Origin: an uncultured Thermoleophilia bacterium
Lineage (GTDB): Bacteria; Actinomycetota; Thermoleophilia; UBA2241
Length of the DNA: 64,000 bases
NCBI GenBank assembly: GCA_963700035.1
Contig: CAVOWE010000018.1
Coordinates: 32,731 to 96,730 of the forward strand
Reading direction: 5' to 3'
Both the position numbers and the translations under genes were made by a program. Position 1 is the stretch's first letter; each line of letters begins with the position of its first letter. Positions 1,163 to 59,751 of the stretch are shown here, piece after piece. A model generated the notes under the pieces. The model worked only from the letters and a program-made list of their open reading frames with translations, was not told the origin of the DNA and searched no databases.

Positions 1163-1795
1163 CTACTTCCCCAGCAGCGCGTCGATCTTCTTGACCCCGT
1201 CGCTGGCGTCCTCGGCGTAGGCGTCGGCGCCGATCTGGTCGGCCCAGCGCTGCGTGCAGGGGGCGCCGCCGACCACGGTCTTGTAGGCGAGGCCCTCGTC
1301 CTTCACGGTCTTGATGACCTTGCGCTGCTCCTCCATGGTGGTGGTCAGCAGGGCGCTCATGCCGATCACGTCGGCGTTCTCCTCCTTGGCCCTGGCGATG
1401 AAGCTCGCCGCGGGCACGTCGCGGCCGAGGTCGCTGACCTCGTAGCCGTTGGCCTTGAGGTAGGCGATCACGATGGCCTTGCCGATGTCGTGCACGTCGC
1501 CCTGCACGGTGCCGATGACGATGCGCCCCTTGACCTCGGCGGCCTCGCCCTCGAGGGCGGCGTTGGTCACCTCGGTGGCCCCGGCCATGGCGTCGGCGCT
1601 CATCATCAGCTCGGGGAGGAAGAGCTCGCCGGACTCGAAGAGCTCGCCGACCTCCTGGATGCCCTTGACGAAGCCCTTGGCCATGATCTCGCCGGGGGCG
1701 ATGCCCTGGTCGAGGGCGCGCTGCGCGACCTCTTCGGCGGCGGCGCGGTCACTGGTGATGATCGCCTGGGCTGCTTCTTCGTAGATGTCGGCCAT
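1163..1795 (-). CDS. Cobalamin-binding corrinoid protein of a methyltransferase system (MtbC/MttC/MtmC-like)
   Basis: 210-aa ORF with the B12-binding DxHxxG signature (GDVHDIGK), followed by MSALLTTT and VVGGAP. It has an N-terminal helical cap region. The stop codon is TAG. Confidence 0.9.
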   Translation of the reverse strand: MADIYEEAAQAIITSDRAAAEEVAQRALDQGIAPGEIMAKGFVKGIQEVGELFESGELFLPELMMSADAMAGATEVTNAALEGEAAEVKGRIVIGTVQGDVHDIGKAIVIAYLKANGYEVSDLGRDVPAASFIARAKEENADVIGMSALLTTTMEEQRKVIKTVKDEGLAYKTVVGGAPCTQRWADQIGADAYAEDASDGVKKIDALLGK

Positions 1796-2434: not shown

Positions 2435-3383
2435 ATGAGCGTGCGGCTCTTCTTCGCCACGGACGTGCACGGCTCGGAGGCCTGCTGGCGGAAGTTCATC
2501 AACTCCGGCAAGCACTACGAGGCAGACGTCCTCATCCTCGGCGGCGACATGACCGGCAAGGCGGTCGTGCCGATCATCGACAACGGCGGCGGCAAGTACA
2601 CGTTCCACATGCAGGACGTGCGTCGCGACATCGACGGCGCCGACGCGCTGGCCGTCGATCAGCGCGCGATCCGCGATCACGGCTACTACCCCGTGGTCAT
2701 GACTCCCGAAGAGAGAAACGAGTTCACCAGCGACCCCGACAAGCTCGACGAGCTCTTCCACGCGCAGATGCGCCGCACCGTCGAGGAGTGGGTCGCCTGG
2801 GCCGACGAGCGTCTGGCCGGCGGGAACATGCGCTGCATCGTGTGCCCCGGTAACGACGACCGCCCCGACATCGACGAGACTGCTCGCCACTTCTTCGCAG
2901 ATCGAGCTCGGCGAGGGCAACGTCATCGACCTGCCCGAGGGGTACCAGCTCGCCTCCAGCGGCTGGACCAACCTCACGCCCTGGGACACGCCGCGCGAGG
3001 AGGAGGAGCCGGCGCTCAAGGCGCGCATCGAAGGCATCGTCGCGCAGGCCACCGTGAGCCCCGACCGCCTCGTCCTCGGCCTGCATTGCCCACCCTACGA
3101 CACGCAGCTCGACGTGGCGCCGAAGATCGATTGGGAGACGCTCACGGTGAAGGGGCAGGACGTCGCCCATGTAGGCTCCACCGCCGTCAAGGAGGTGATC
3201 GAACAGGTCCAGCCGATCCTCTCGCTCCACGGGCACATCCACGAGAGTCGCGCGGCCGTGCGCATCGGGAGCACGCTCGCGATCAACCCCGGGAGCTCGT
3301 ACGTCGAGGGCACGCTGTCCGGCTGCATCGTCGAGCTCGACGGCAAGAAGAAGCTGAAGCGCTACAGGCTCACGATGGGGTGA
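2435..3383 (+). pseudogene. Calcineurin-like metallophosphoesterase with one frame change as sequenced
   Basis: GAAGGAGG RBS lies 5 nt upstream of the ATG at 2435. Motifs present are FATDVHGS, GGDMTGK, CPGNDD and LHGHIHES. The frame switches from frame 2 to frame 0 near 2879 (DIDE / LLATSSQIELGEGNVIDLPEGY). Confidence 0.8.
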
Positions 3384-3465: not shown

Positions 3466-5221
3466 ATGGCGACCAATGCGCCAGAGCAAACGCTCTTCGT
3501 GCGAAAAGCAAGTGGTCTTGTCAAAGGCTGGTCGAGTGGGGACGGCTTCCGCTACTCGTTCTTCTCGGTCAACCTGTTCCTCGCGATCTGGTCGATCTCG
3601 TACGCCACATTCATCCCGGGTGGCAGTCTGTTCTGGTCGATCGTCATCACCGCGGCGTTCATCATCCTCGAGATCATCGTGTACGCGGGTCTCATCTCGG
3701 CGATGCCGCGCGCCGGTGGCGACTACGTGTGGATGACGCGTATCTTCAACAGCGCGATCGGCTTCATCATCGCCGCTGTAGGCTGGTGGTTCATCCTCTG
3801 GCTCTGGACGCCGATCTACGCCGACATGGGCGTCCAGACCACGGTCAAACCGATCTTCCGCATCCTCGGCCTCAATGGGGCGGCAGATTGGCTGGGTACC
3901 CGCACGGGCATCTTCGTGGCCTCGCTGGTGGTCATCGCCATCGCCTCGACACTCGTGGCCGTAGGCATGAAGACCTATGCCAAGTTCCAGAAGTGGGCGA
4001 TGTGGATCGGCCTCGCCGGCGTGATCATCTGCGGCATCCTGCTGCTCGTCACCTCCGGTGCCTCCTTCAAGGAGAAGTTCAACGCCGCCGCCGAGAAGTA
4101 CTACGGCGGCGACAATCGGCACGCTCAATCTCACAGAAGTACGAGACCGACGAGTCCGGCTACTTCGTCTACGACGACGACGGTCTTGCCATCAATACCG
4201 TGGAGGGCGAGACCTACCCCGACGCGTTCGCGGCGGTCGAGGCGGTCGGCTCGGGTACTGGCATGCCGACGTCGACCTTCGCCGGTGGCCTGAGCTGGGC
4301 CACCTGGACGCTCATCCCGTTCATGATGTTCTGGATGGCGTGGCCGAACTGGGGGGCGACGCTGTACGGCGAGGTCCGAGGGGCCAAGGACTTCCGCAAG
4401 AACATCTACATGATGCTCGGCGGGCTCCTGGTGCCGACGGCCATCACCTTGGCCTTCCTGGGGTTGATGACCTGGAAGGTGGGCTACCAGGCGTTCATGG
4501 GCATGATGGCCTCGTGGTGGTACTACTCCACGGCGGGTACCAACATCTCGCCGATCGGTGGCGACTACATCTCGCCGACGGCGATGATCTCCTGGATCGT
4601 CCCCAACGCGGCGTTCCAGATCATCCTCATCGCCGGCATCTCGCTGCTGCTCTTCGGCTGGTTCGGCACGCTCTTCCTCTCGTCGACGCGCATGATCTTC
4701 GCGTCCGCGTTCGACCGCATCCTGCCTGAGGGCGCGGCGAAGGTGACCTCCGGCGGCGTGCCGGTCGTCGCCCTTGTGCTGATGACCATCCCGTCGATCA
4801 TCATGGCGGCGCCTCTACGCCTACACGCCGATCGATGCCGAGAAGGGCGTCACCATCGTCAAGCTGTTCACCTACGACGCGACGGTGGGCATCCTGATCA
4901 TGTTCCTGGGCTCTGCCCTCGCCTTCATGATCATGAAATGGCGGGCGCAAGAGCATCTGGGACAGCTCCTCGCTGCCCAAGAGCGGCATCGCCGGCATCC
5001 CCTGGATGTCCATCATCGCCGCAATCTACTCGGCGTTCCTGGTGTTCAACCTCTACCTGTTCGTCACGGACGCGCTCTACGGCGTGAACAACTCGAAGTC
5101 CGCCATCTTCATGGCGATCCTGTACGTGGCCGCGCTCGTCATCTGGATCATCGCCTGGGCGACGCGCAAGCGCCAGGGCATGGCCCTCGAGGCGGTCGCC
5201 AAGGAGATCCCGGTCGAGTAA
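3466..5221 (+). pseudogene. APC-superfamily permease with three frame changes as sequenced
   Basis: AGGAGG RBS precedes the ATG at 3466. Multi-TM APC-like sequence (MPRAGGDYVWMTRIF, MFWMAWPNWGATLYGEVRGAKDF, LFLSSTRMIFASAFDRILPE) can be followed through frames 1, 0, 1 and 2, with switches near 4117, 4810 and 4945. The gene ends at a TAA at 5219. Confidence 0.8.
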
Positions 5222-5264: not shown

Positions 5265-5300
5265 CCGGCGGCGGCCCGGCCTTGGCCGGGCCGCCGCCGG
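5265..5300 (+). terminator. GC-rich perfect hairpin downstream of the permease gene
   Basis: CCGGCGGCGGCCCGGCC pairs with GGCCGGGCCGCCGCCGG (about 16-17 bp). No clear U-tract follows. Confidence 0.45.
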
Positions 5301-5347
5301 GTCTGTGAGACAGAGAGAACGACGCGAGCAAAGGAGGCCGCGCATTC

Positions 5348-6751
5348 ATGAAGATCTTGACGCGAATGGGCGACAGCTCCAACGTGGAACTCACGCTGGA
5401 CGAGCTGCGCAGAGAGTTTGAGGAGGGATCGGAGTTCGCCGCCAAGAAGGCCAAGGTCCCGGTCCTCACGGAGAACGAGGTCGACTACCTCGTCGACATG
5501 TTCGCCGCCCCCACGCGCATCTGGGGCTGCCAGCGCGGCAACGAAGTCGTGATGACCAAGGACGGCTGCGTCAACGCGCTCAACTCCTCGCGGATGTCGA
5601 GCGGCGTGGTCGCGCCGGTCAACCGCGAGGTCGGCGTGCGCCTCTTCGAGTCGATGCTCGGCTTCGACTCCATGGAGGTCTCGCACAACGACTACTCGGT
5701 GAAGCCCCAGCGGTTCCTCAAGGCGCTCGAGATGCTCCACGTCGAGCTGCTCATGGAGACGACGATCTTCCCGCTCCTCTACGGCTTCATGCCGAACCTG
5801 GGGCTGTACTACCGCCCGGACGGGTCGTTCGAGAACCCGAGCGACCTCATGCCGTTCGGCAAGATCGCCGAGGCGCGCAAGACGCAGGAAGAGGCGGGCG
5901 AAGCCTGTCTCGCGGACTGCATCGAGATGAGCGACTGCATGGTCGAGATGGGCGCCGACGGCATCGACTTCGACACCGTCGCGTCCACCGGCGACGCCGA
6001 GTTCTACGCCGTCCTCAAGGCCTGCGATCACGTCGCCAACGAGACCGGCCTGCCGGTCGAGATCGGCATGTCGGCAGAGATGGTGCTCGGCTTCCACGGC
6101 GAGCTCGAGTACAACGGCAAGCGCCTCGCCGGCATGTGGGCGCACGAGCAGCTGCAGATCTGTGAGGAGGCCGGCTGCGCCATCTTCGGCCCGGTCTCCA
6201 ACACCAACACCAGGAAGACCGTCCCGTGGAACCTCGGCAAGGCGCTGACCTTCATCAAGGCCTGCACCGAGATCGCCAAGATCCCCGTCCACCCCAACGT
6301 GGGCATGGGCGTCGGCGGCGTGCCGATGTTCGAGACCCCGGCCGTCGACGTCGTGACGCGCTGCAGCGCCGCGATGATCGAGATCGGCAAAGCGGACGGG
6401 TTGTAGGTGGGTACTGGTGACCCCGCCGGCATGCACATCGCGCATCTGCTGGCCTCGTCGATGGGTGGGATCCGGGCCGCCGGAGATCTGGTGGCAAGGA
6501 TGCAGCTCAGCAAGAAGATGAGGATCACGGAAGCCAAGCAGTATGTGGCCGACAAGCTCCACGTGACGCCGCTCGACCTGTCCGACCCGACGATGATGCG
6601 CCAGCTCCGCGAGGATCTGGACATCGGCGTGATCACGGGCGTGCCGGGCATCGCCAAGGGCCTCGCAGCCAAGGCGCGTATCGCCGAGCTGCTCGACATC
6701 GAGATCAACTGCGTCGAGCAGTTCAAGAAGAAGACCGGGCTCCACTACTAG
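5348..6751 (+). CDS. mtbB: Dimethylamine:corrinoid methyltransferase MtbB homologue, 467 codons including one in-frame UAG (predicted pyrrolysine)
   Basis: AAAGGAGG RBS precedes the ATG at 5348. ORFs 5348..6406 and 6407..6751 share one frame and are separated only by the TAG. Strong resemblance to remembered MtbB blocks ([83 protein letters not shown]). Confidence 0.9.
6404..6406 (+). other. In-frame TAG, predicted pyrrolysine (recoding) codon of mtbB
   Basis: Context is [26 protein letters not shown]. As I recall, archaeal MtbB reads VDGI-Pyl-IGVGDPLGMPIAHIM at this point. The protein arithmetic (352 + 1 + 114 = 467) matches canonical MtbB length. Confidence 0.85.
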
Positions 6752-6762
6752 GAGGCCCGCGA

Positions 6763-6800
6763 GGGCGGCCCTGGCGCCCTGCAGCGCGTCAGGGCCGCCC
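6763..6800. terminator. Hairpin between convergent mtbB and the kinase gene
   Basis: GGGCGGCCCTG (6763..6773) pairs with CAGGGCCGCCC (6790..6800), with a 16-nt loop. Confidence 0.4.
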
Positions 6801-6820: not shown

Positions 6821-7747
6821 TCACACCGACTCGAGCCACGCCTCGTAGTCGGCGTTGGCGGCGTTGCTCTGGAAGCGCCGCATGCGGTTCATGCCGTACT
6901 CGTAGAAGTCGAAGTCGAGCTTGGACACGCTCGCCTGGATCATCGCCCAGATGCTCCACCACAGGTCGGCGACCAGCTTGTGCAGCTGCATGCGCGCGTA
7001 GCGATGCTCGTCCATGCCGCCGCAGTAGGCGCTGAGCACGAGCTTCTCCTCGGCGACGCTGAGGGGATGTTCCACGCAGAAGTCGCCGAGGTCGAAGTAG
7101 GGGTCGGTCATGCCGCCGTACTCCCAGTCGATGATCCACATCTTGCCGTCGGGCGCCAGGAGGAAGTTCTCGCTGAGCAGGTCGTTGTGGCAGGCGGTGA
7201 AGGCCGGTGCATCGCGCTCCAGGGCCGGCTCGATGCGCCGGCCCTGCTCGAGCATCCAGTCGAGCTCCGCGGGATGCCGCGCGTTCACGTCCTGCGCCAT
7301 GCGCAGGTAGTCGCGGATCATGTCGAAGAGGCGGATCTCGTTGTCGAAGACCGCCTTCTCGTGATAGGTGCGCATCGCCGCGACGATCTTCTCGAGGCGG
7401 TCGGGGTGGCCGGCGAGCGACTCGGGGTGCATGGTCTCGCTCTGGATGAACGGGACCACCGTGCAGTCCCCGGGCTGGATGACGTGGAGCAGCGGCGGGG
7501 TGACCCCGGTGGCGGCCGCGGCGGCGTGGTTGTGCAGTTCGCGGGTGCGGTCGATGAAGGTCTCCGTACCCTCCCCGGGGATGCGCAGCACGAACCTGCC
7601 GACGCCCGCGGCGCCCGGCTCCCCGTCGACGGTGACGAGGTAGTTGCGGTTGGTGATGCCGCCGCCGAGCACCTCGCAGCGGACATCCTTGCCCCGCCAG
7701 TCGTCGATCCTCGCGATCACGTCCTCGGCGCTGATGGGCTCAGTCAT
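6821..7747 (-). CDS. Choline/ethanolamine kinase-like phosphotransferase (APH/ChoK fold)
   Basis: 308-aa ORF with GGITNRNY, the Brenner motif CHNDLLSENFLL and the ChoK-type IIDWEYGG. Confidence 0.85.
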   Translation of the reverse strand: MTEPISAEDVIARIDDWRGKDVRCEVLGGGITNRNYLVTVDGEPGAAGVGRFVLRIPGEGTETFIDRTRELHNHAAAAATGVTPPLLHVIQPGDCTVVPFIQSETMHPESLAGHPDRLEKIVAAMRTYHEKAVFDNEIRLFDMIRDYLRMAQDVNARHPAELDWMLEQGRRIEPALERDAPAFTACHNDLLSENFLLAPDGKMWIIDWEYGGMTDPYFDLGDFCVEHPLSVAEEKLVLSAYCGGMDEHRYARMQLHKLVADLWWSIWAMIQASVSKLDFDFYEYGMNRMRRFQSNAANADYEAWLESV

Positions 7748-7852: not shown

Positions 7853-9235
7853 TCAGGAGACCGGCACCTCGAGGCCCATGCCGGCGAGGTCGCTGCGCAC
7901 GTCGTCCATGGCCTTCTGGTACTCGCTGTTCACGATCCGCTTGGTCTTGGCGTCGTAGACCTCCTGGAAGGTCATGCCCTTGTCGGGATCCTTCAGCTTG
8001 TCGCCGAAGAGCGGGAAGATCTTCTGCGCGATGGGTTCTGCCTCGGCGCGCGTCAACTTCGCCGTCGCCAGGCCGATCTCGGCGTGGAACTTGTGGTCGT
8101 CCGGCACCAGCGAATCGGACTGCACCGACATGGCCGGGTGCCCCGAGAAGATGTTGCCGCCGGAGGTCACGATGGCGAGCAGGTAGCAGGCCATCTCGTA
8201 GTGGTACTGCTTGGTGCCGGAACCGCCTCCGAGGTATGGCAGGTTGACCATCGGGTAGCCCATGTTGCGGCCGATGGCGGCGTTGCTCATGGCGATCGCC
8301 CAGATGAGCGGCTTGGTCGACGAGAGGTGCAGCTTGCTGTGCAGCGGCGCGTTGTAGTGGTAGCTGCCGCGGAAGATCAGGTTGCCCATGATCATGTAGC
8401 AGGTGGCCGTGACGGCGACGCCCTCGGCGCCGCCGGCGTAGCCGCCGAAGAGCGGCGTCGAGGTGGAGCCGATGTTGGCGCTGATGCTGTTGTAGAAGGC
8501 GACCTTCTGCAGCGCCTCGTAGCCCACCACCATCTCGGAGAGGAAGTCGATGAGGAAGCCGTCGCTGGGGCGCAGGCCGAAGGCCGGGTAGCTGGCGGCG
8601 AACATCGAGGCCGGCTGGGAGGCCGCGGAGATGCCGTTGATGATCGGCAGGCCCGCGCGGCCTGAGCGGCGGATGCCTTCGCGGGCGAGGCGCACGGTCT
8701 TGCAGGCCGCGAGGATCTCCTGCGGCGAGCGCACGCGCGAGTCCTTGCCGCGCAGATGGAGGATCGACGGTACGCTGACCGAGTCGACGATGTTGAACGA
8801 CGCCATCTTCTCGACGGTGTCCATGTACACTTGCTCGTCGGTCGTGTAGATGCCGCCGCCGACGTGCACCCACGGCCGGTCGTCGGTGGTGTCGGGGCGC
8901 CGGCCGTGCATGGTCTTGCGCTCGCGGCCTTCGCCGAAGGTCGTGGCCTTGGGCGCCTGCGAGCAGGCGAGCAGGATCTCGTCGCGCGTGAACTGCATCA
9001 CGCGGTTGGTCTCGGGGCAGTACGCGCCGGCCTCGGCGAGGAGGTCGACGGCCGCCTGGAAGACGCGGTCGGTGAGGTCGTCGTCGGTGTTGATGATGGT
9101 CTCTTTGTCCCACTTGACCTGGTGGCGCGCGATCACCTCGGTGAGCGTGGGGACGTAGCGCTTCATGTAGTAGTCGGTCTCGGAGGTCAGCGGCCCGACT
9201 TCGGCGCGGTCGAATACTTCGATCAGGTCGATCAT
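7853..9235 (-). CDS. MtmB-family (monomethylamine methyltransferase-like) protein, uninterrupted, with no in-frame UAG
   Basis: 460-aa ORF with a GAGGAG RBS. It resembles remembered MtmB blocks: FDRAEVG (MtmB YDRAKVG), PLFGGYAGGAEGVAV (PIFGGYAGGIEETTIV), and the C-terminal KGMTFQEVYDAKT...LAGMGL (GKTFQECYDVKT...LEDLGL). The region SGRAGLPIINGISAAS aligns to MtmB AGRPGMGV-Pyl-GPETSLS. Confidence 0.8.
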   Translation of the reverse strand: MIDLIEVFDRAEVGPLTSETDYYMKRYVPTLTEVIARHQVKWDKETIINTDDDLTDRVFQAAVDLLAEAGAYCPETNRVMQFTRDEILLACSQAPKATTFGEGRERKTMHGRRPDTTDDRPWVHVGGGIYTTDEQVYMDTVEKMASFNIVDSVSVPSILHLRGKDSRVRSPQEILAACKTVRLAREGIRRSGRAGLPIINGISAASQPASMFAASYPAFGLRPSDGFLIDFLSEMVVGYEALQKVAFYNSISANIGSTSTPLFGGYAGGAEGVAVTATCYMIMGNLIFRGSYHYNAPLHSKLHLSSTKPLIWAIAMSNAAIGRNMGYPMVNLPYLGGGSGTKQYHYEMACYLLAIVTSGGNIFSGHPAMSVQSDSLVPDDHKFHAEIGLATAKLTRAEAEPIAQKIFPLFGDKLKDPDKGMTFQEVYDAKTKRIVNSEYQKAMDDVRSDLAGMGLEVPVS

Positions 9236-9283: not shown

Positions 9284-9931
9284 TCAAGACACCAGCTTGG
9301 TGGCCAGGACGACGGCATCGTAGGCGCTGCCGCTCCATCCGTCGGCGCCGATCGTGTCGGCCCACTCCTTGGTGGTCGCGCCGCCGCCCACGATGACCTT
9401 GTACTTGTCGCGGGTGCCCTGGTCCTTGAGCGCGTCGATGACGTCCCGCTGGCCGATGAGCGTCGTGGTGAGGAGAGCCGAGATGGCGATGATGTCGGCG
9501 TTCGTTTCGTTGGCCTTGTCGATGAACTTGAAGAGGTCGACGTCGATGCCGAGGTCGTGGACCTCGAACCCGGAGGTCTCGAAGAGGAGCTTGAGGATGT
9601 TCTTGCCGATCGAGTGAAGGTCGCCCTTCACGGTGCCGATGACGATCGTGCCCTTCTTCTCGTCGGCGCCACCGGCTTCCTTGATCTTGGGCTCGAGCAC
9701 GGTCATGGCCGACTGGAAGGCCAGAGCGGCCTGCATGAGCTCGGGGAGGAAGATGTCTTCGCACTCGAACTGCTCGCCGATGACGTTCAGCCCCGGCAGC
9801 AGGCCCTTGTCGATGACCTCGCGGGGGTCCATCCCGTCGGCCAGGGCCTTGTTGACGGCCTCGAGGACGGCGTCCGGATCCTGGTCGACGATCGACTGCT
9901 TGAGCTGTTCGTGCATGGTCTCGTTTCCCAT
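9284..9931 (-). CDS. Cobalamin-binding corrinoid protein (second copy)
   Basis: DxHxxG signature GDLHSIGK, followed by ISALLTTT and IVGGGA. The ATG at 9931 has a GAAGGGG RBS. The ORF track starts at a GTG at 9940. Confidence 0.9.
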   Translation of the reverse strand: MGNETMHEQLKQSIVDQDPDAVLEAVNKALADGMDPREVIDKGLLPGLNVIGEQFECEDIFLPELMQAALAFQSAMTVLEPKIKEAGGADEKKGTIVIGTVKGDLHSIGKNILKLLFETSGFEVHDLGIDVDLFKFIDKANETNADIIAISALLTTTLIGQRDVIDALKDQGTRDKYKVIVGGGATTKEWADTIGADGWSGSAYDAVVLATKLVS

Positions 9932-10012
9932 TACGTGCACCCCTTCTTGTCGTGTCTGGATGTGATCGTGAAGATCGTGGAGTACGGCGTCGGCGCCGCG
10001 GGGCGGGCGCCG

Positions 10013-11473
10013 CTAGGCGTCGCCCCCGGCCTCGACCCAGGTGGCTTCGCCGGCGACGAGGCCGGGGAACTCGGCGCGGATCTGCGCGTCCAGCTCGGGC
10101 GCCCAGACGGCCGGGTTCGGCTGCGACAGGAGGCCGCGGGCGAAGGCGCGCGCGCGGCTCTGCGCGTCCGGCCGTCCGGCCGCCTCCCATTGCGCGCGCA
10201 TGCCGCGGTCGGCGACCTTGGGGAAGACCGCGGTGGTCTTCATCAGCGACTTGGTGTGCTTGCTCTTCATGAAGTCGCCGCCCGGTCCCACCTGGGCGAT
10301 GACCTCGAGGGCCAGGTTGTCTTCGCTGAACTCCAGGCCGCGCACGACGCGCTTGTTCATGAGGGCGATCTCGTCGTCGACCACGGCCTTGCCGAAGTCG
10401 AACGCCATGAGCGAGCTGAACAGGCCGCCCATGTTGAGCAGCGTGGCGCCGGCGAGCACCGCGCCGAGCGTGTTCATGCCGGTCTCGTAGCCCGACTGCG
10501 CGTCGTTCGAGTGCGCGTTGGTGAGGCCGATGTAGCCGCCGGTCGGGACGTTGTAGAAGTGCCCGAGCTGGGCCTGGGCCATGCAGAGCATGCCGGTCTC
10601 GATGGCGCCCGGGGCGTAGGCCCCGGTGCGCATGTCGGCGACCGTGGGCAGGCTGGCGTAGATGATCGGCGTGCCTGCCCTGACCATCTGCTGGAAGACG
10701 GTGATGGCGAGGAACTCGGCGTTGCCCACGATGAGCGTGCCCATGAGCGTCATCGGCGAGGTGAGGCCGGCGTTGGGCACCACGGTCGTGTACACGGGCA
10801 GGCCGCGCTCGGTGAGATACATCACCGCTTCCGTGGAGTCGACGTCCATGGTCAGCGGGCTGACCATCGGGCAGTAGTGATGGTTGATGATCGGCCGCTC
10901 GCGATAGGCGTCGGCGCCGCCGGCGATGAGCTCGCCGAGCTTGAGCACCTGGCGCAGGTCGTCCATGTTGGGGGTGTTGCTGCGCACCGGCTTGAGGCAG
11001 TTCTTGAGCGCCGGGTAGAAGCGGCTGAGGCTGAACTGGCCGGGGGGCGCGTCGTCGGCGAGCGTGGAGATCGAGAAGATGTCGAAGCCCTTGAGCTCGT
11101 TGATGAGGTGGGCGATGTTGGCGATGTCGGTGGAGGTGGCGCGGCGCTCGACACCGGTCGCGGGGTCGACCACGTTGGGCGCGGAGCTGCCGGTGACGAC
11201 CACGGGCCCGCACTCGGGGATCGTGCGGTCGAACTGCGGGTCGCGGCCGCGGAAGGTGAAGCTCGTCGGGCAGACTTCCAGGTACTTGCCGATCACTGCG
11301 GGGGGGAACTTGACGAGCCCATCGGCGTCGACGCTGCAGCCGTGGGCCTTGAAGACCTCGCGGGCGGGCCCGTGGTGAGCCAGGATGCCGACGTTCTCGA
11401 GGACCCACAGCGACGCTTCGTGGACTCGCTCGACCTGCTTGGCGGTGAGTAGCTCAACGTGCTTCATGTGCAT
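10013..11473 (-). CDS. MttB-superfamily (trimethylamine methyltransferase family, COG5598-like) protein, non-Pyl
   Basis: 486-aa uninterrupted ORF with family-typical blocks (LTAKQVERVHEASLWVLENVG, HHYCPMVSPLT, GPGGDFMKSKHT). It sits directly downstream of the DeoR gene and upstream of the corrinoid gene. The stop codon is TAG. Confidence 0.85.
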   Translation of the reverse strand: MHMKHVELLTAKQVERVHEASLWVLENVGILAHHGPAREVFKAHGCSVDADGLVKFPPAVIGKYLEVCPTSFTFRGRDPQFDRTIPECGPVVVTGSSAPNVVDPATGVERRATSTDIANIAHLINELKGFDIFSISTLADDAPPGQFSLSRFYPALKNCLKPVRSNTPNMDDLRQVLKLGELIAGGADAYRERPIINHHYCPMVSPLTMDVDSTEAVMYLTERGLPVYTTVVPNAGLTSPMTLMGTLIVGNAEFLAITVFQQMVRAGTPIIYASLPTVADMRTGAYAPGAIETGMLCMAQAQLGHFYNVPTGGYIGLTNAHSNDAQSGYETGMNTLGAVLAGATLLNMGGLFSSLMAFDFGKAVVDDEIALMNKRVVRGLEFSEDNLALEVIAQVGPGGDFMKSKHTKSLMKTTAVFPKVADRGMRAQWEAAGRPDAQSRARAFARGLLSQPNPAVWAPELDAQIRAEFPGLVAGEATWVEAGGDA

Positions 11474-12501: not shown

Positions 12502-13521
12502 TCAGTACTCCGCGTCGGCCGCCTTCGTCTTGCCCCTGAAGGTCCTGTAGACGAGCGCCGTGTACGCCAGGACGATCGGGCAGAAGATGAGCGCGATGAC
12601 GAGCATGACCTGCAGCGTCAAGCGTCCGGAGGCGGCGTTGGTGACCGTCAGGCTGGTCTCGGGCGGCGTGCCCCGCGCCGGCACGATCTCGGGGAAGTTG
12701 CCGACCGCGGCGATGCCGGCCAGGGCGATGATGGTGACCGCCGAGCCGAGGAAGGACTTGAGCTCGGCACCCTCCTTCGTCATCTGCCAGATGGTGTAGA
12801 GCAGCGACAGCGCGAGGAGGACGAGGAAGAACCAGCCGAGCGGCCGGCCGAACACGTTGTCCGACGCGCGCGAGACCGTGACGATGGTCGCGACGGAGGT
12901 CGCGACCGCCAGCACCACGCACACCCAGAAGGAGATCTTGCGGTACTGCAGCGCGCGGGCGTGCAGCGCGCCCTCCGACTTGAGCGCCACCCAGGCCGCG
13001 CCGTGTGTGACGATCAGGAACAGGCCGGTGACCGCCACGAGCAGGGAGTACGGGTTCAGCAGTTGCAGGAACGTGCCCGTGTAGTCGCCGTTGGCGTTCA
13101 TCGGGACGCCGCGGATGACGTTGCCCAGGGCGCAGCCGACGAGGATCGCCGGCACCAGGCTGCCGAGGAAGAAGGCGCCGTCCCAGACCCTGCTCCAGTT
13201 CTCGTCACGATGGCGGAACTCGAGCGAGACGGCGCGCAGGATCAGGCCGAACAGCACGAGCATGATGGCGAGGTAGAAGCCACTGAACGTCATCGCGTAG
13301 ACCATGGGGAAGGCCGCGAACACGGCGCCGGCGCCGGTCACCAGCCAGACCTCGTTGCCGTCCCAGATCGGCCCGATCGAGGCGCGGACCACGCGCTTCT
13401 CGTCCTCGGTCCTGGCGATGAAGGGGTAGAGGACGCCGGCTCCGAGGTCGAAGCCGTCGAGGACCACGTAGCCGGTGAGCAGGAAGGCGACCAGGAAGAA
13501 CCAGATGTTCACGAGGCTCAT
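12502..13521 (-). CDS. cydB: Cytochrome bd ubiquinol oxidase subunit II
   Basis: 339-aa polytopic ORF with the typical N-terminus (VVLDGFDLGAGVLYPF), immediately downstream of cydA. Confidence 0.9.
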   Translation of the reverse strand: MSLVNIWFFLVAFLLTGYVVLDGFDLGAGVLYPFIARTEDEKRVVRASIGPIWDGNEVWLVTGAGAVFAAFPMVYAMTFSGFYLAIMLVLFGLILRAVSLEFRHRDENWSRVWDGAFFLGSLVPAILVGCALGNVIRGVPMNANGDYTGTFLQLLNPYSLLVAVTGLFLIVTHGAAWVALKSEGALHARALQYRKISFWVCVVLAVATSVATIVTVSRASDNVFGRPLGWFFLVLLALSLLYTIWQMTKEGAELKSFLGSAVTIIALAGIAAVGNFPEIVPARGTPPETSLTVTNAASGRLTLQVMLVIALIFCPIVLAYTALVYRTFRGKTKAADAEY

Positions 13522-13525
13522 CTCG

Positions 13526-14890
13526 TCACCTCCCCGCGCCGACGGGAGCGGGCTGCGCGGAGGCCCGCTCGGCCTCCAGCATCTCGACGACGTCGTCCGG
13601 GCCCTTGCGGATGATCCCCAGGAAGATCCGCAGCCAGGCGATGAACAGGATCAGGTAGATGAGGCCGAACAGGCCGAGCGTGGTCCAGACTTCGCCGGCG
13701 GAGACCGTCGGCGAGACGCCGTCGGTGGTGCGCAGCAGGCCCTGGACGATCCAGGGCTGCCGCCCCACCTCGGTGGCGGCCCAGCCCATGTTGATGGCGA
13801 TGAGGGGGAGCGGGAAGCACACGACCAGCAGCCACAGCAGCCAGCGCGCCTTCTCGAGGCGCTTCAGGAAGTGCATGACGAGCGCCAGCAGCATCACCCC
13901 GATGAACACGAACGACAGGGCGATCATCAGATGGTAGCTCTGGAAGGTGATCTGAGCCGGGGGCCGGTCGGCGGGCGGGACGCTGTCGAGGCCCTTGACC
14001 ACGCGGTCCGGGCTGAGACCCAGCATGAGGCTCAGGCCGCTGGGGATGCTGACACCGGTCGTGCCGCCGTCGCCGTTCACCCAGCCGAAAAGGTACAGCG
14101 GCGCGTTCTTCCGCGTCTCAGTGAGGTTCTCGAAGGCCGCCATCTTCACCGGCTGATACTCTTCGACTACCAGCGCGTGCCAGTGACCGATGAAGGGCAT
14201 GGCCGCCGAGGCGAGGAGCCCGACGACGAGCGCGGTGACCAGCGCCTGGCGGGCGAAGTGCAGGTGGCGCTTCTTGAGCAGGTACCAGGCGCAGATGCTG
14301 GCCACGACGAAGCATCCGGCGATGACGCAGGCCACGATGGTGTGCACGTAACGCGGCGGGAAGGACGGGTTGAGGGCGGCGGCCCAGAAGTCGGTGAGGA
14401 TGGCCCGGCCGTCCTCTATGGCGTAGCCGGCCGGGGTCTGCTGCCAGGAATTGGCGATGAGGATCCACACCGCCGACAGCAAGGTCCCGATCATCACGAG
14501 CCACGCCGAGGCGTAGTAGAAGCCTTTGGAGACCTTCTTGCGGCCGAACAGCAGCACGCCGAGGAAGGTCGACTCGAGGAAGAAGGCGAGAAGGCCCTCA
14601 GCCGCCAGGGGCGCTCCGAAGATGCTGCCCACGAAGCGCGAGTAGTCCGCCCAGTTGGTGCCGAAGGCGAACTCCATGGTGATCCCGGTGGCGACCCCGA
14701 TGGCGAACGTGGTCGTGAAGAGCTTGATCCAGAAGTTCGAGGCCGCCTTGTCGGCGGGGATGTTGCTCTTGTAGTAGCGCCGCTCGGAGAACACGACCAT
14801 GAGCGCCAGGCCGATGCTGATGGGCACGAAGATGAAGTGATAGCCCACGGTGAACGCGAACTGGATACGGGAGAGCATCAAGGCGTCCAT
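13526..14890 (-). CDS. cydA: Cytochrome bd ubiquinol oxidase subunit I
   Basis: The start was chosen at MDALMLSRIQFAFTVGYHFIFVPISIGL (ATG at 14890). The longer ORF reaching 14974 adds an Arg-rich non-protein-like extension. Confidence 0.9.
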   Translation of the reverse strand: MDALMLSRIQFAFTVGYHFIFVPISIGLALMVVFSERRYYKSNIPADKAASNFWIKLFTTTFAIGVATGITMEFAFGTNWADYSRFVGSIFGAPLAAEGLLAFFLESTFLGVLLFGRKKVSKGFYYASAWLVMIGTLLSAVWILIANSWQQTPAGYAIEDGRAILTDFWAAALNPSFPPRYVHTIVACVIAGCFVVASICAWYLLKKRHLHFARQALVTALVVGLLASAAMPFIGHWHALVVEEYQPVKMAAFENLTETRKNAPLYLFGWVNGDGGTTGVSIPSGLSLMLGLSPDRVVKGLDSVPPADRPPAQITFQSYHLMIALSFVFIGVMLLALVMHFLKRLEKARWLLWLLVVCFPLPLIAINMGWAATEVGRQPWIVQGLLRTTDGVSPTVSAGEVWTTLGLFGLIYLILFIAWLRIFLGIIRKGPDDVVEMLEAERASAQPAPVGAGR

Positions 14891-15000
14891 GCGTGTCCGC
14901 CACCTCCTGGGAGAGCGTGTGTTTCCCGCCTGCGCGCGACACCCCCGGTCACTGCGCGAACGGCTTGGCGACACTTATTTTCACTGTCGGTGTAGTGTCA

Positions 15001-15030
15001 TGTCAACAGAAATATGTGCGCCGGGTCACA
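15001..15030 (-). promoter_or_regulatory. Candidate cydAB promoter -35 box (TTGACA) with an upstream CRP/GlxR-type palindrome
   Basis: On the minus strand, TTGACA lies at 15006..15001. TGTGCGCCGGGTCACA at 15015..15030 matches TGTGA-N6-TCACA in 9 of 10 positions. The site is in an AT-richer patch upstream of cydA. Confidence 0.4.
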
Positions 15031-15164
15031 AGCGGGCCGACGGCGAGCTGAATAGAAAGTATTAAGCGCAGGTTAAGCAGCCTGTTCAGGCCCCGGGAGC
15101 CTGTGCTACCATGCGCGAGGGCCGGCACCGATCGCCGGCCGTTCTGCTGTAGGAGGCTGAGGCT

Positions 15165-15623: not shown

Positions 15624-15983
15624 GGGGGCGAACAGGTCTCGACATGGGCTGTACCGAGGTGGGAGCAGCAGGCCGAGGTCCGGTGGCCTCGTTAAACTGC
15701 CGGAACCATATACTTGCCGAGAATAAGACTCTCGCACTCGCCGCCTGACCTAGTCAGGTAGCGCATCGCGCCCGGCTCGTCCACGGCTGGGGCCTGCGGT
15801 GTCATCAAGTGGACTGGGGTGCGGTCGCGCTGCTCCGAGCGAGCGCACCCGAGACTGATCGGAGCTGGCAGACGGCACCCGGCCGACGCGGGGGCCGCGA
15901 GCGAGATCAATGCGCCGGCTAAGCCTGTAGAGACTCCGCCGAGGCGTCCGTGGACGCGGGTTCGATTCCCGCCGCCTCCACCA
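15624..15983 (+). ncRNA. ssrA: tmRNA (ssrA)
   Basis: The 5' GGGGGCG pairs with the 3' CGCCUCC-ACCA, including a G3:U wobble (alanine identity). The 3' end GGACGCGGGTTCGATTCCCGCCGCCTCCACCA forms a T-arm. The tag reading frame at 15716..15748 encodes AENKTLALAA followed by a stop. An extended -10-like TGGTATACT lies at 15587..15595. Confidence 0.9.
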
Positions 15984-16027
15984 TCCTTCTTCGCCGCAGG
16001 CCCGCGGCCGTGCACTATACTGCGGGC

Positions 16028-17249
16028 GTGGACCAGCCGGCCGACATCCTCTCTTCAGCCGCGTCCGGCGCCTCCACGCCGTCGGCTTCGCGATGGCCGC
16101 GCCTCCTGGATCCGCTCCCTGTGAGCATCGGGCTTGCGCTCGTGTTCACCGCGGCCGGGCTGGTCGAGCTCCTGACGCGCGGCGCCGCTGCGGCCGGCTA
16201 CCGCGACGACGGACCCCTGCTGATCACGCTGACCGTGGCGAGCGCGCTCTCGCTGGCGCTGCTGTGGTGGTCGCCGCTCGCCAGTCTCTGCGCCTCGCTG
16301 GTCCTCCTGTGCGCGCAATCGATCATCGGCTACGAGTTCACCCAGGCGGCTCTGTGGGCAGTCGTCGTCGCGTCCTTCGCTACCGTGGCCTTCGACCACT
16401 GGCGGCGCGCCCTGGCGGCCGGGTTCCTGGCGGTCCCCGGTGTGGTCGTCCTGGTGCTGACCGTGCCGAACCTCTCGTGGCAGAGAGCCCTGGGCGCGTG
16501 GGCCTCGCTCTCGCTCGTTTGGGTGATCGCGGTGGTGATCCGCGTCTACCGTGGCAGTATCGAGCGGGCCGAGCGCAGGGCCGCGCTCTTTGCGGCCGAC
16601 CGCGAGGCGCGCGCCCGCGAGGCGGTGGCGGAGGAGCGCTCGCGCCTCGCGCGCGAGCTGCACGACAGCGTCGGGCACGCGCTCAACGTGGTGGTACTTC
16701 ACGCGGGCGCCGCCCAGCGCGTCATCGAGACCAAGCCCGAGCTGGCGCGCGAGGCGCTCGGCAGCATCGAGACGGCGGGCCGCCAGGCGCTCGGGGACAT
16801 CGAGCGCATGCTGGGCATCCTGCGCGCCCCCGACGACGGCGTGGGGCTCGATGCCACCCCGGGCCTCGGCCAGCTGGAGAGGCTTTGCGCTCAGGTCCGC
16901 GAGGCCGGGCTACCCGTCGATCCTGAACGTGGTGGGCGAGGCTCGAGGGTTGCCGGCCAGCCTCGACCTCACCGCCTACCGCATCGTCCAGGAATCGTTG
17001 ACCAACACGCTCAAGCACGCCGGCAAGACTCACGCGACCGTGACGGTGCAGTACGAGCCGGACGCGGTCGCCATCGAAGTGCTCGACGACGGCCGCGGGG
17101 TCACCGCCGGCATCGCCGGCGGCGGCCGCGGCCTCGTCGGCATGGGCGAGCGCGTCGCCACTTTCAGGGGAGAACTCGAGGCGGGCCCGCGCGCGGAGGG
17201 CGGCTTCGCCGTCCGCGCGCGCCTCCCGCTGCACAAGGAGGGCACATGA
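16028..17249 (+). pseudogene. Sensor histidine kinase (HisKA_3/NarL-type partner) with one frame change as sequenced
   Basis: Multi-TM N-terminus, H-box ELHDSVGHALNVVVLHAGAA, then after an apparent 1-nt insertion near 16922 (GAT-C-CTG) the ATPase part (LDLTAYRIVQESLTN, LDDGRG, GRGLVGMGERV). The TGA overlaps the regulator's ATG. Confidence 0.85.
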
Positions 17250-17929
17250 GCATCACCGTGGTGCTGGCCGACGACGAGCAGATGGTGCGCTCCGGTCTCC
17301 GCCTCATCCTCGAGGCCGAGCCCGATATCGAGGTCCTCGGCGAGGCCGGCGACGGCGGCGAGGCGGTGGAGCTGACGCGCCGCCTGGATCCCGACGTCGT
17401 ACTCATGGACGTGCAGATGCCGGTCATGAACGGGATCGAGGCGACGCGCGCCATCGTCGCGCTGGGGCGCGACGAGACCTCGCGCGTCCTCATCCTCACG
17501 ACCTTCGACCTCGACGAGTACGTCTACGAGGGCTTCAAGGCCGGCGCCAGCGGCTTTCTGCTCAAGCGCACGCCGGCCGCCGACCTCGTCGCCGGCATCC
17601 GCATCGTCGCCGCCGGCGACGGCATGATCGCGCCCTCGGTCACCACGCGTCTCATCGCCACCTTCCGCGACAGGGACGAGCGCGCCGGCGTGCCTCGCGA
17701 CCCGGCCGTGCTGGACGATCTCACCCAGCGCGAGCACGAAGTGCTGGTGCTGGTCGCGCGCGGCATGACCAACGGAGACATCGCCGCGCATCTCTTCCTC
17801 AGCGAGGGCACGGTGAAGACGCACGTCAAGCGGATCTTCGCCAAGCTCGCGTTGCACGACCGCACGCAGGCCGTGATCCTCGCCTACGAAGTGGGCCTGG
17901 TGCGCCCCGGGGAGAGCGCGGCCGAGTAG
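17246..17929 (+). CDS. LuxR/NarL-family response regulator
   Basis: Receiver domain (VVLADDE...VLMDVQMP) plus a LuxR HTH (LTQREHEVLVLVARGMTNGDIAAHLFLSEGTVKTHVKRIF). ATGA overlap with the kinase gene. Confidence 0.9.
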   Translation: MSITVVLADDEQMVRSGLRLILEAEPDIEVLGEAGDGGEAVELTRRLDPDVVLMDVQMPVMNGIEATRAIVALGRDETSRVLILTTFDLDEYVYEGFKAGASGFLLKRTPAADLVAGIRIVAAGDGMIAPSVTTRLIATFRDRDERAGVPRDPAVLDDLTQREHEVLVLVARGMTNGDIAAHLFLSEGTVKTHVKRIFAKLALHDRTQAVILAYEVGLVRPGESAAE

Positions 17930-23871: not shown

Positions 23872-23922
23872 CAACCTAGGGGTGGGCGGCGCGCCGCCCT
23901 CCCCTGAACGACGGAGAGACTC

Positions 23923-24588
23923 ATGCCCGAGAGCGACAGCGCCTACGGCGTCGACGAGGCCCTGGAAGGCGAGATCGTGGAGGAGGGCGGCGAGGAGGCG
24001 GCCGCTGGAGGCGCCGCCAGCGGCGCCCGGCCCGACTTCGCCGTCGGCGGCGCCCGGCCCGGCGCCGCCGGCATGACCTTCACCGTGCCGGTCGACACGA
24101 CGGTCATCAAGCAGCACCGCGACAACGCCGCCGTGACGTTCGGCGCCGTGCTCGTGGTGGTCGGCGCGGTGCTGCTCGGGGCACGCTTCAACGACGTGGT
24201 CGCCGCCGGCGGCCCCGCCCTGTGGATCGGCCTCGGCTTCCTCACCTGGTGGGCCTTCAGCGGGAACTACGGCCTGCTGGTGCCCGCCGGCGTGCTCACT
24301 GGCCTTGGCGTGGGACTGATGCTCTCAGACGTCGAGCTCTCGGGGAATCCCGTGGCACTCGGCTTGGGCGTCGGCTTCCTCGCGATCTACGCGCTCGACG
24401 CCCTGCGGCGACGGCGCAGCTCCAGCTGGTGGCCGCTCGTGCCGGGCGCCGTGCTGGTGATCGTGGGACTGCTGCAGAACACGTCGGGGTGGGATTCGCT
24501 GGGCGAGCTGGGCTGGCCGCTGTTCCTCATCGTCATCGGTATCGTCATCATCGGCGGCGCGCTCTCGCGCCGCGCGCCGCGATCGTAG
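23923..24588 (+). CDS. Hypothetical polytopic membrane protein (LiaF-N/DUF-like)
   Basis: 221-aa ORF with an acidic N-terminus followed by 5-6 hydrophobic segments. The stop codon is TAG. Confidence 0.55.
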   Translation: MPESDSAYGVDEALEGEIVEEGGEEAAAGGAASGARPDFAVGGARPGAAGMTFTVPVDTTVIKQHRDNAAVTFGAVLVVVGAVLLGARFNDVVAAGGPALWIGLGFLTWWAFSGNYGLLVPAGVLTGLGVGLMLSDVELSGNPVALGLGVGFLAIYALDALRRRRSSSWWPLVPGAVLVIVGLLQNTSGWDSLGELGWPLFLIVIGIVIIGGALSRRAPRS

Positions 24589-24597
24589 GCGACGGCC

Positions 24598-27273
<2,676 letters not shown>

Positions 27274-31743: not shown

Positions 31744-31772
31744 CCGACAGGCCGCGCGAGTCCGGGCCGGCT

Positions 31773-58284: not shown

Positions 58285-59751
58285 CTACCGCGCGGCGGCC
58301 TCCCTCGCCGCCGCGGCGATGATCGCGTCGAACTCGGCGCCGAGGTCGGCGGGGAACGGCACGGGATCGGCGGCCAGGATCTCGGCGACGCGCTCCTGCG
58401 CCTTCTCCGTCGTGCTCTTCGCGCCGGCGTTCTTCCAGCCGTCGTAGCTGCCGGTCTCGCCAAGCTTGGCCTGCCACAGCTCGCGCACGTGCGCGCGGGT
58501 GTGGTCGTCGAAGAGGTAGTTGCCGTTGAAGCCCATCTTCTTGATGAGGTCGACGGCCAGCGTCTCCTCGCTCACCTCGATGCCGGAGAGGATGCGCTTG
58601 ACCATGCCGATGATCTCGTCGTCGACGACCATGTTCTCGAGGCACAGGATGCGCGAGCCGTCGAGAAGGCCGGTGCCGAAGGTCACGTCGGCGCCGTTGG
58701 CGTAGGCCATGAACATCGCCAGCGCGTTCTCGTAGGCGCTCTGGATGCCGGGCTCCTTGGCGGTGGTGGCGCCGGCGCCGTACCAGGCGGGCACGCCGTA
58801 GAAGTCGGCCATGTGGCCCTGGCAGCTGCGCAGGAGCAGGGCCTCCGGCGAGTTGCTGGCGTAGGCGCCGCTCCGCATCTCCATGGCGGTCGGACCGCCG
58901 CCGTGGATCACCTTGGCGCCGGGGTGAGCGAGCTGCACCAGCGCGGCGCCGCTCAGGAACTCGGCGTTGGTGATGACTGCGGAGCCGGCGATGGTGATGG
59001 GGCCGGTCGCGCCGAGGATCGGCATGGGGTAGAAGCTCACCGGTATGCCGGCCTCGGCCAGCACCAGGGCGAGGTCCATGCCGAAGCGCTCCTGGTGGAG
59101 CGGGCTCACGGTGCAGATGATGGCCGTGAACATCGGCCGGCGCTTCAGCTCTTCAGCTGCCGCCGGCCAGGCACTCGGCCATCCTGATCAGGCTGCGCGC
59201 CTCCCAGTCTTCCTTGATCGACACGACGATGTTGTGCTTCTCGCTGTTGCGTACGCAGGCGTCGAACTCGTGCAGCACGCGCGTCTCGGGCGGGCAGTCC
59301 TGGGCACTGACCACGGCGCTCGTGGCGCTGACGTTGTCGAGCGCCTGCACGACCCTGGCGCAGTTCTCGAGGTCCTCCTTGCGTGACGAGCGCACCTCGC
59401 CCGTGTTCGGATCGCGAGAGAAGACGCCGCAGCCGTCCGAGCTGATGTAGACGTGCTCGCCGTCGAGCGGCAGGTCGTACTCGGGGTTGCGAGCGCCGAG
59501 GGTGAACTCGTGCGGCACGGTGCTCATCGCCTTCTCGACGACGGCGGCCGGGATCCTCGCCACCGTCGTCTTGCGGTCGACGGTGGCGCCGTTGGCCTCG
59601 AGGATGTCGAGGGCGGTCTGCGAGTGGAACTTGACGCCCACGCTCTCGATGACGTCGAGGGTGGCCTCGTGGATCTGGCTGCACCTCGTCCGGACGAGAG
59701 CAGGTCGAGCCTGACGCGCTTGCCGACGTAGCACTTGTCTGCGTAGGCCAT
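58285..59751 (-). pseudogene. MttB-superfamily methyltransferase paralogue (non-Pyl), downstream copy of a tandem pair, with three frame changes
   Basis: AAAGGAG RBS and an ATG at 59751 (MAYADKCYVGKRVRLDLLS). Two switches lie near 59703 and 59690 (…DEVQ…IHEATLDVIESVG) and one near 59160 (LAGG / AAEELKRRPMFTAIICTVSPLHQERFG). The stop codon is TAG. Confidence 0.8.

Follow-up and report, generated by a model that had tools for sequence, protein, structure and literature searches.

An mtbB gene with an in-frame UAG codon at the pyrrolysine position in an uncultured bacterium of the Thermoleophilia

A stretch of 64,000 nucleotides of DNA (contig CAVOWE010000018.1; hereafter the window) was analyzed, and the gene at positions 5348..6751 of its forward strand was found to be interrupted by a single in-frame TAG triplet. 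The host is an uncultured Thermoleophilia bacterium (phylum Actinomycetota) of soil or sediment, and the gene matched mtbB, which encodes the dimethylamine methyltransferase MtbB. Our results indicated that 5348..6751 is very probably a functional MtbB-family gene whose UAG at codon 353 is decoded as pyrrolysine (Pyl). An earlier note, made from the letters of the DNA alone, had proposed a genuine Pyl-recoded gene and not a nonsense mutation. This proposal was supported by the location of the TAG on the Pyl column of the family, by the presence of the TAG in 85/85 mtbB copies, by purifying selection on the codons after it, and by the pyl genes of the lineage.

The in-frame UAG and the pyrrolysine column of the MtbB family

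The gene formed a single reading frame of 467 sense or Pyl codons with one internal stop. Its parts were located as follows.

5331..5337, plus strand: Shine-Dalgarno-like AAGGAGG, read from the sequence, 10 nt 5' of the mtbB ATG at 5348
5348..6403, plus strand: part of mtbB before the UAG, 352 codons, matching PF09505 and TIGR02368
6404..6406, plus strand: predicted pyrrolysine codon, the in-frame TAG at codon 353, aligned to the UAG of RF02509
6407..6748, plus strand: part of mtbB after the UAG, 114 codons, VGTGDP...GDLVARM..., inside the same Pfam and NCBIfam match
6477..6494, plus strand: conserved 7-bp hairpin CCGCCGG-AGAU-CUGGUGG, 71 nt after the UAG, the 3' helix of PYLIS_2
6749..6751, plus strand: true terminator of mtbB, also TAG, with a further in-frame stop only 638 codons on

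The two open reading frames (ORFs) reported in the earlier note, 5348..6406 and 6407..6751, were confirmed to the base as one frame split by the TAG at 6404-6406 only. The length of 467 codons, the TAG at codon 353, its local context, and the ribosome-binding site (AAGGAGG at 5331-5337, 10 nt ahead of the ATG) were all as described there. Both halves had also been described as protein-like, in agreement with a G+C fraction at third codon positions (GC3) of 0.95 in the first half and 0.89 in the second, against 0.40 at second positions (GC2), which is a strong coding signal, and with the end-to-end fit of the joined protein to the MtbB models. With lysine placed at codon 353 for the profile scans, the joined product scored 598 bits against Pfam PF09505 (Dimeth_Pyl) over residues 5-462 of 467, and 494 bits against NCBIfam TIGR02368 (cutoff 369), an equivalog model of dimethylamine--corrinoid protein Co-methyltransferase. 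Judged by these profiles, the product of 5348..6751 is a full-length MtbB. A comparison of MtbB with the PDB returned no solved structure related by sequence.

Three independent lines of sequence comparison placed the window TAG on the pyrrolysine column of the family. The Rfam model RF02509 (PYLIS_2), which was built on mtbB, matched 6404..6503 on the plus strand with 64.2 bits (gathering score 36). The UAG at model positions 1-3 fell on the TAG at 6404-6406, and the model consensus encodes Pyl-IGVGDP.GMP..H...AAGDLVARM, the counterpart of the post-TAG motif of the window. The best 120 homologues from a collection of 5.8 billion proteins were each 343-356 residues long and covered just the first 75% of the query; they end at the TAG column because gene callers stopped there. 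When 1.84 billion cluster representatives were scanned exhaustively with HMMER, the MtbB family proved to be small (376 representatives), and the complete representatives (353-357 residues, down to 36% identity) all ended at the TAG column, in ...GK.DG(L/V). The alignment of the TAG with the Pyl column, for which the earlier note had asked, gave the same column by the UAG of RF02509 and by the ends of the truncated representatives. The note had also placed a Pyl near residue 356 of Methanosarcina MtbB and an AAGDLVARM downstream of it, in agreement with the 355-residue truncated representatives and the RF02509 consensus, respectively.

One library representative, P0261 (463 residues, 33% identical), was a rare full-length MtbB homologue with a Trp at the pyrrolysine column. 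The Trp codon TGG is one base away from TAG, and P0261 represents a non-Pyl branch of the MtbB family, which is usually regarded as always containing Pyl.

One genome was scanned for each GTDB species, and the 80 mtbB loci found there gave, together with the window, 85 mtbB copies. The TAG was present at the junction in all of these copies (85/85; 55-100% identity) and was followed by 106-126 conserved in-frame codons per copy, or 184 in one copy; such a recurrence is not due to chance. The synonymous sites beside the TAG varied among the homologues (GGG/GGC/GGT/GGA, TTG/TTA, and GTG/GTC/GTA), and so did the terminal stops of mtbB (TGA in 59, TAG in 17, and TAA in 7). Since the internal TAG was invariant while these sites varied, it appears to be specifically maintained. 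The ratio of nonsynonymous to synonymous substitution rates (dN/dS) against close relatives was 0.06-0.16 in the part preceding the TAG and 0-0.31 in the part following it, and the purifying selection seen in the latter values indicates that the downstream 114 codons are translated.

A pyrrolysine insertion sequence (PYLIS)-type structure directly after the UAG was considered and rejected. The 100 nt after the UAG were no more stable than shuffled sequences (fold z = -1.0), and the 5' helix of RF02509 was poorly paired in the window, with many non-standard pairs, and did not form. The PYLIS_2 match mostly reflected the conservation of the coding sequence together with the 3' hairpin. This hairpin at 6477-6494 lies within the sequence encoding AAGDLVA, and both of its variable pairs join synonymous third codon positions. 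Among 83 sequences, pair one was CG in 51, AU in 14, UA in 11, UG in 6, and mismatched in 1, and pair two was CG in 29, GC in 26, UG in 22, UA in 5, and mismatched in 1. Mapped on a neighbour-joining tree, the covarying pairs had changed state 15 and 24 times, and the observed covariation was reached in 0/500 shuffles. Located 71 nt away, the hairpin is probably too distant to touch the ribosome that is decoding the UAG. The role of PYLIS in recoding is unproven for the mtbB family generally (PMC2933860). If confirmed, the covarying hairpin would be the first RNA element of mtbB with real comparative support.

Pyrrolysine machinery of the lineage and competing explanations

The genes for the synthesis and loading of pyrrolysine were found in the lineage. 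A metagenome collection was scanned with a GC-rich back-translation of LRPMLAPNLY, an invariant motif of pyrrolysyl-tRNA synthetase (PylRS), which was first verified on the solved PylRS sequences of M. mazei, D. hafniense, and M. alvus. All of the contigs matching the motif (91/91) encoded a PylSc that shared 42-61% identity with that of D. hafniense, and approximately 80 of the 91 had a GC content of 67-76%; pylT and pylS occurred in about 80 high-GC metagenome contigs. High-GC PylSc contigs were also present in a metagenome that yielded a contig of 98.5% identity to the window. One related high-GC metagenome contig, L148, encoded PylB (TIGR03910, 441 bits), PylC (TIGR03909, 338 bits), PylD (PF21455, 91 bits), PylSn (TIGR03912, 127 bits), and PylSc (TIGR02367, 318 bits), and further carried tRNA-Pyl(CUA) and a corrinoid protein. 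The PylSc of L148 had thousands of relatives, some of them named by NCBI as 'pyrrolysine--tRNA(Pyl) ligase large subunit [Thermoleophilia bacterium]'.

Pyl loci and TAG-containing mtbB genes were located on the same contigs in two related metagenome-assembled genomes. On contig_23250 (1,999,427 bp; CAWCSR010000003.1), the pyl locus L173 was at 853-874 kb and the TAG-mtbB loci L033 and L067 were at 241-262 kb and 594-615 kb, respectively. On contig_16451 (466,430 bp; CAVVGY010000005.1), the pyl locus L176 was at 16-37 kb and the mtbB locus L057 at 228-249 kb. Analysis with ARAGORN showed that tRNA-Pyl(CUA) adjoined pylD on both contigs. The specific marks on these contigs were limited to pylSc, pylT, and pylD, and L173-L176 showed PylD_N plus genes in the positions of pylC and pylB with weak ATP-grasp and Radical_SAM marks. 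The Thermoleophilia tRNA-Pyl had the sequence GGGGGGTCGATCGGAAGGATCAGCGTGGGCTCTAAACCCACGTAGGCGGGTGTGACTCCCGCACTCCCCGCCA, and this tRNA-Pyl(CUA) presumably resembles that of D. hafniense. The genomes of the relatives with TAG-mtbB also contained a Pyl-type mttB, itself interrupted by an in-frame TAG.

As in the bacterial Pyl systems of Desulfitobacterium hafniense, Acetohalobium arabaticum, Bilophila, and the Olavius delta-1 symbiont, PylS was split into PylSc and PylSn, pylB, pylC, and pylD were clustered, and TAG was not purged from the genomes; in this comparison PylSc shared 52-56% identity with the PylSc of D. hafniense. The Thermoleophilia differ from these systems in belonging to the Actinomycetota, in the distance of about 4 kb between pylSc and pylBCD-pylT, and in the hundreds of kb between the pyl locus and mtbB. 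Conserved extra genes were located between pylSc and pylBCD-pylT (5869-9005 of L148 and 11744-14859 of L173), encoding a Germane-domain protein, PylSn, a family-less protein of 205 residues, a radical-SAM protein, and a corrinoid protein. Such an order appears to differ from the compact pylTSBCD of Firmicutes. By its gene content, the Thermoleophilia lineage appears to be fully equipped for Pyl, and we infer from the lineage that the genome of the window would be equipped as well.

In the proposed mechanism, PylB, PylC, and PylD, which the relatives suggest are encoded elsewhere in the genome, would build pyrrolysine out of two lysines, and PylSc together with PylSn would load it onto tRNA-Pyl(CUA). 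Delivered by the ordinary elongation factor, the tRNA-Pyl would decode the UAG, for which it would compete with release factor 1. The outcome would be an enzyme of 467 residues, in which the imine of pyrrolysine would bind and activate the methylamine. The methyl group would pass to the Co(I) of the neighbouring corrinoid protein and then to tetrahydrofolate. Imine activation and methyl transfer to the corrinoid are established for MtbB, MttB, and MtmB. No dedicated insertion element would be needed, and the hairpin 71 nt downstream may modulate the recoding.

Several observations weigh against the decoding of the UAG as Pyl in this genome. The 64-kb window and the surroundings of the 80 mtbB loci, to a distance of 10 kb, were searched with ARAGORN and with tblastn, using the PylRS of M. 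mazei, D. hafniense, and M. alvus, and no pylT, pylS, or pylBCD was found. When the search for PylS was repeated and cluster members were listed, no PylS was assignable to the closest metagenome-assembled genome (MAG), CAVXXF01. Approximately 13 of the 32 other heuristically called ORFs of the window ended in TAG (about 40%) and none in TAA, and in 1.3 Mb of the loci of relatives TAG ended about one quarter of the heuristically called ORFs, a fraction in which the internal TAGs of mtbB and mttB are counted. With TAG stops this frequent, genome-wide read-through would be costly. The frameshifted permease and phosphatase genes beside mtbB can be read as local decay, and the putative dimethylamine-type substrate was assigned by family membership. 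Because TAG is an ordinary terminator, that of mtbB included, decoding would compete with termination or be conditional, and the recoding would be partial or condition-dependent. In Pyl-using bacteria, UAG decoding is reportedly in competition with termination or conditional. The PylSc genes of the relatives L114, L148, and L155 themselves end in TAG.

Elsewhere in the window, a 226-codon ORF at 23908-24588 (plus strand) ended in a TAG in frame with a P-type ATPase ORF at 24589-27273. The pair was considered as a second candidate for read-through, but the upstream ORF had no family match, and the arrangement is probably a coincidence.

It would also be conceivable that mtbB is a relic in a genome that lost or never had pyl, in which the UAG would act as a stop and give an inactive fragment of 352 residues or a trace of near-cognate read-through. 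The lack of pyl genes within the 64-kb window and the frameshifts in the adjacent permease and phosphatase genes are consistent with a relic, but we consider it unlikely. Both halves of the gene were intact and under purifying selection against relatives at just 5-12% synonymous divergence, and the lineage as a whole retains the TAG and the pyl genes. Similar frameshifts hit different genes in sister long-read MAGs (L173 versus L174), which points to assembly indels rather than decay, and a contig from short reads, with 98.5% identity to the window, had the adjoining genes intact.

A split enzyme, in which the TAG would be a true stop, the 114-codon part would be restarted at the following GTG, and the two chains would assemble, is less probable still. 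The codon 3' of the TAG was GTG in 79/83 homologues, as a restart would require, but it was GTC in 3 and GTA in 1, neither of which is a start codon, and these four homologues disfavour a stop-restart gene. No ribosome-binding site was found ahead of the GTG, and the Val/Ile after the UAG belongs to a protein motif that is conserved in the MtbB of methanogens too. Neither TGA nor TAA ever replaced the TAG, and a plain stop-restart would not depend on this one stop. In Methanosarcina, mass spectrometry showed that MtbB is one chain whose UAG position is occupied by pyrrolysine (PMC2933860). A sequencing or assembly error at the TAG is effectively refuted, since single-base indels do occur in nearby genes of the assembly but are not substitutions, and the TAG was present in 84 independent homologues from many short- and long-read assemblies.

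Gene neighbourhood of mtbB and its possible substrate

The genes and hairpins around mtbB were located as follows.

1163..1795, minus strand: corrinoid (B12-binding) protein of the cognate type; PF02310, PF02607; TIGR02370 with 223 bits (cutoff 215)
2438..3383, plus strand: metallophosphatase gene, frameshifted, with its halves in different frames; orthologue annotated Metallophos_3
3466..5221, plus strand: APC-family amino-acid/amine permease gene with three frameshifts, single-base indels relative to L001
5265..5300, plus strand: perfect GC-rich hairpin of 17 bp, after the permease stop and ahead of the ribosome-binding site of mtbB, no T tract
6763..6800, no strand assigned: GC-rich hairpin with 19-nt arms between the convergent mtbB and kinase genes, no T tract
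6821..7747, minus strand: small-molecule kinase of the choline/ethanolamine kinase (APH) family; PF01633 with 108 bits; syntenic in relatives
7853..9235, minus strand: non-Pyl MtmB homologue, 460 residues, no internal stop; PF05369 with 230 bits over the full length
9284..9940, minus strand: second corrinoid protein, by profile matches
10013..11473, minus strand: non-Pyl MttB-superfamily methyltransferase; PF06253; TIGR02369 with 357 bits, under the cutoff of 525
12502..14974: cydAB, cytochrome bd genes

The hairpin at 6763..6800 is likely a bidirectional terminator, and the two hairpins at 5265..5300 and 6763..6800 may be terminators or an attenuator that isolate mtbB as its own unit. The stretch around 5265..5300 aligned with the relative L001. 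A scan for consensus promoters and terminators around mtbB gave no match.

The product of 7853..9235 had an Ile at the column of Pyl202 of M. barkeri MtmB (approximately 28% identity, estimated by eye), and this MtmB homologue was syntenic with mtbB across the Thermoleophilia. The nearest solved structure to the product of 10013..11473 was the glycine betaine methyltransferase MtgB. Three non-Pyl MttB-superfamily genes were found in the 64-kb window, at 10013-11473 (minus strand), 49281-50612 (plus strand), and 58285-59734 (minus strand), and the gene at 58285..59734 was broken by a single-base indel frameshift, not by a TAG. The halves of the permease shared one frame in L002. In the window, the frameshifts of the phosphatase and permease genes were near 2890-3054, 4110, 4812, and 4949. 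The indels in the phosphatase, the permease, and the MttB gene at 58285..59734 are likelier to be long-read assembly errors than pseudogenes, because relatives are intact there and sister long-read MAGs break other genes.

The MtbB proteins of the Thermoleophilia fell into three paralogue groups. The window type, group A (81-98% identical), was the most diverged from the MtbB representatives outside the class. The set of permease, phosphatase, kinase, non-Pyl MtmB and MttB, and corrinoid genes adjoined the group-A mtbB in most loci with enough flanking sequence, and the metallophosphatase gene was upstream of mtbB in most group-A loci. Group B (63-67%) showed the classical mtbB-corrinoid-mttB(Pyl) order, and in L057, L059, L065, L067, and L069 the group-B mtbB was followed by a corrinoid gene and then by a TAG-mttB with the context SWVAGA-TAG-GDAK (in L057, the TAG-mttB was at 13679-15064 and its TAG at 14603). 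A third mtbB paralogue was located 5-6 kb downstream in three genomes (L061, L065, and L067). A single genome contained as many as three of the mtbB paralogue groups, together with a Pyl-type mttB.

With the UAG read as Pyl, the composition of the cluster suggests that a choline-like quaternary amine is demethylated step by step and that MtbB acts on the dimethyl intermediate, which may be dimethylamine or dimethylaminoethanol (or its phosphate). In E. limosum, the demethylation of phosphocholine, which gives dimethylaminoethanol phosphate, is carried out by a kinase together with a non-Pyl MttB homologue (PMC12155760). The MthK-MthB-MthC-MthA cluster of E. limosum resembles that of the window in having a kinase beside a non-Pyl MttB-superfamily methyltransferase and a corrinoid protein, MthB being likened by its description, but MthK is a relative of serine kinases and the kinase of the window a member of the choline-kinase/APH family. 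A non-Pyl MtmB homologue, likened by its description, also occurs in Methanococcoides, where MtqB is a tetramethylammonium/choline methyltransferase; this first function of a non-Pyl MtmB was published in 2026 (PMC13044021). None of the clusters described so far (PMC12155760, PMC13044021) includes a Pyl-containing MtbB.

A tentative proposal, which we hold to be doubtful at present, is that group-A MtbB is the Pyl step of a complete choline/phosphocholine demethylation and acts on N,N-dimethylaminoethanol or its phosphate. The permease would import the substrate, the non-Pyl MttB and MtmB homologues would strip the quaternary amine of its first methyl group, and the phospho-intermediates would fall to the kinase and phosphatase. 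If true, a pyrrolysine enzyme would have a new class of substrate for the first time, and the pathway of E. limosum, which ends at dimethylaminoethanol, would be extended.

Host lineage, known systems, and significance

The MAGs behind nearly all of the 80 loci carried the names uncultured Thermoleophilia, Actinomycetes, or Actinomycetota, and many were long-read bins of Microflora Danica (MFD). The nearest locus, CAVXXF010000002.1, had an MtbB 98% identical to that of the window and 92% identical DNA over 14 kb, which suggests another species of the same genus. Short contigs of the Joint Genome Institute (JGI) that were 98.5-99.3% identical to the window were found in several metagenomes. The earlier note had pictured the host as a high-GC, actinobacterium-like organism with cytochrome bd, and this description held: the GC content of the window was 69.9%, cydAB was located at 12502..14974, and the closest relatives were Thermoleophilia MAGs. 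Its view of such a host as an unusual home for Pyl was overstated, as Pyl-type mtbB and mttB in Actinobacteriota MAGs (PMC10805028) and PylRS in Actinobacteria (PMC9630628) had been published.

A gene for transfer-messenger RNA was present at 15624-15983 (plus strand) with the tag peptide AENKTLALAA, and it occupied the same place downstream of cydAB in L002, L020, and L028. Two composite ORFs were also found in the window. The ORF at 15950-17929 (plus strand) combined histidine-kinase (HisKA_3), receiver, and LuxR-type domains, and that at 29375-31888 (minus strand) combined an ABC ATPase with an MFS transporter; they may be real fusions or the result of indels joining adjacent genes.

Comparison with MtbB1-3 of M. 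barkeri (TIGR02368 / PF09505) showed a family match over the whole length, a single in-frame UAG in the same alignment column, and the common motif (I/V)G(V/T)GDP...AAGDLVARM after the UAG. A nearby corrinoid partner and the 3' hairpin of PYLIS_2 were also common to both. The window gene was only approximately 44% identical to the nearest representatives outside the Thermoleophilia. In contrast to M. barkeri, the host of the window is a bacterium with 70% GC and cytochrome bd, in which TAG is a common ordinary stop and the methyl groups presumably go to tetrahydrofolate instead of coenzyme M. The neighbourhood in the window is a kinase/phosphatase/permease cluster, whereas that in M. barkeri is mtbB-mtbC-mttB.

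The recoding is of a known kind and occurs in a lineage where it has already been noticed but barely described. In Stordalen Mire, Pyl-encoding mtbB and mttB were expressed in situ by Actinobacteriota MAGs, the genus Bog-752 included (PMC10805028), and two Actinobacteria were among the organisms of a PylRS survey (PMC9630628, PMC11764691). Searched in full text, the literature on pyrrolysine together with Thermoleophilia gave nothing beyond one incidental paper. The study of Stordalen Mire (Ellenbogen et al. 2023, PMC10805028) dealt with the same phenomenon in partly the same lineage, as L044 is from a bog_752 MAG; it inferred Pyl from gene truncation alone in one peatland, whereas the pyl genes, tRNA-Pyl, paralogues, and neighbourhood are documented here for dozens of species representatives, which are mostly named Thermoleophilia. 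What is added is the breadth across the Thermoleophilia, a pyl locus that is complete and includes tRNA-Pyl, the division into paralogue groups, the hairpin with its covariation, and the choline-type neighbourhood.

Dozens of Thermoleophilia species representatives contained one to three Pyl-mtbB genes each, and several also contained a Pyl-mttB. The expansion of the code by Pyl thus seems to be shared throughout the lineage, a class with high GC and cytochrome bd, and not to be an oddity of two genomes. Standard gene callers split mtbB into ORFs of 352 and 114 residues, and the best 120 database homologues were likewise truncated; as a result of such truncated calls, methylamine use by soil and peat Actinomycetota is systematically under-annotated. 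The Thermoleophilia would compete with methylotrophic methanogens for the methylamines of wetlands. With TAG very common as a terminator, these genomes would be a good natural case for the tolerance of ambiguous UAG decoding, and the conserved neighbourhood of kinase, phosphatase, and non-Pyl methyltransferases offers a testable lead to a choline-type pathway that may use a Pyl enzyme.

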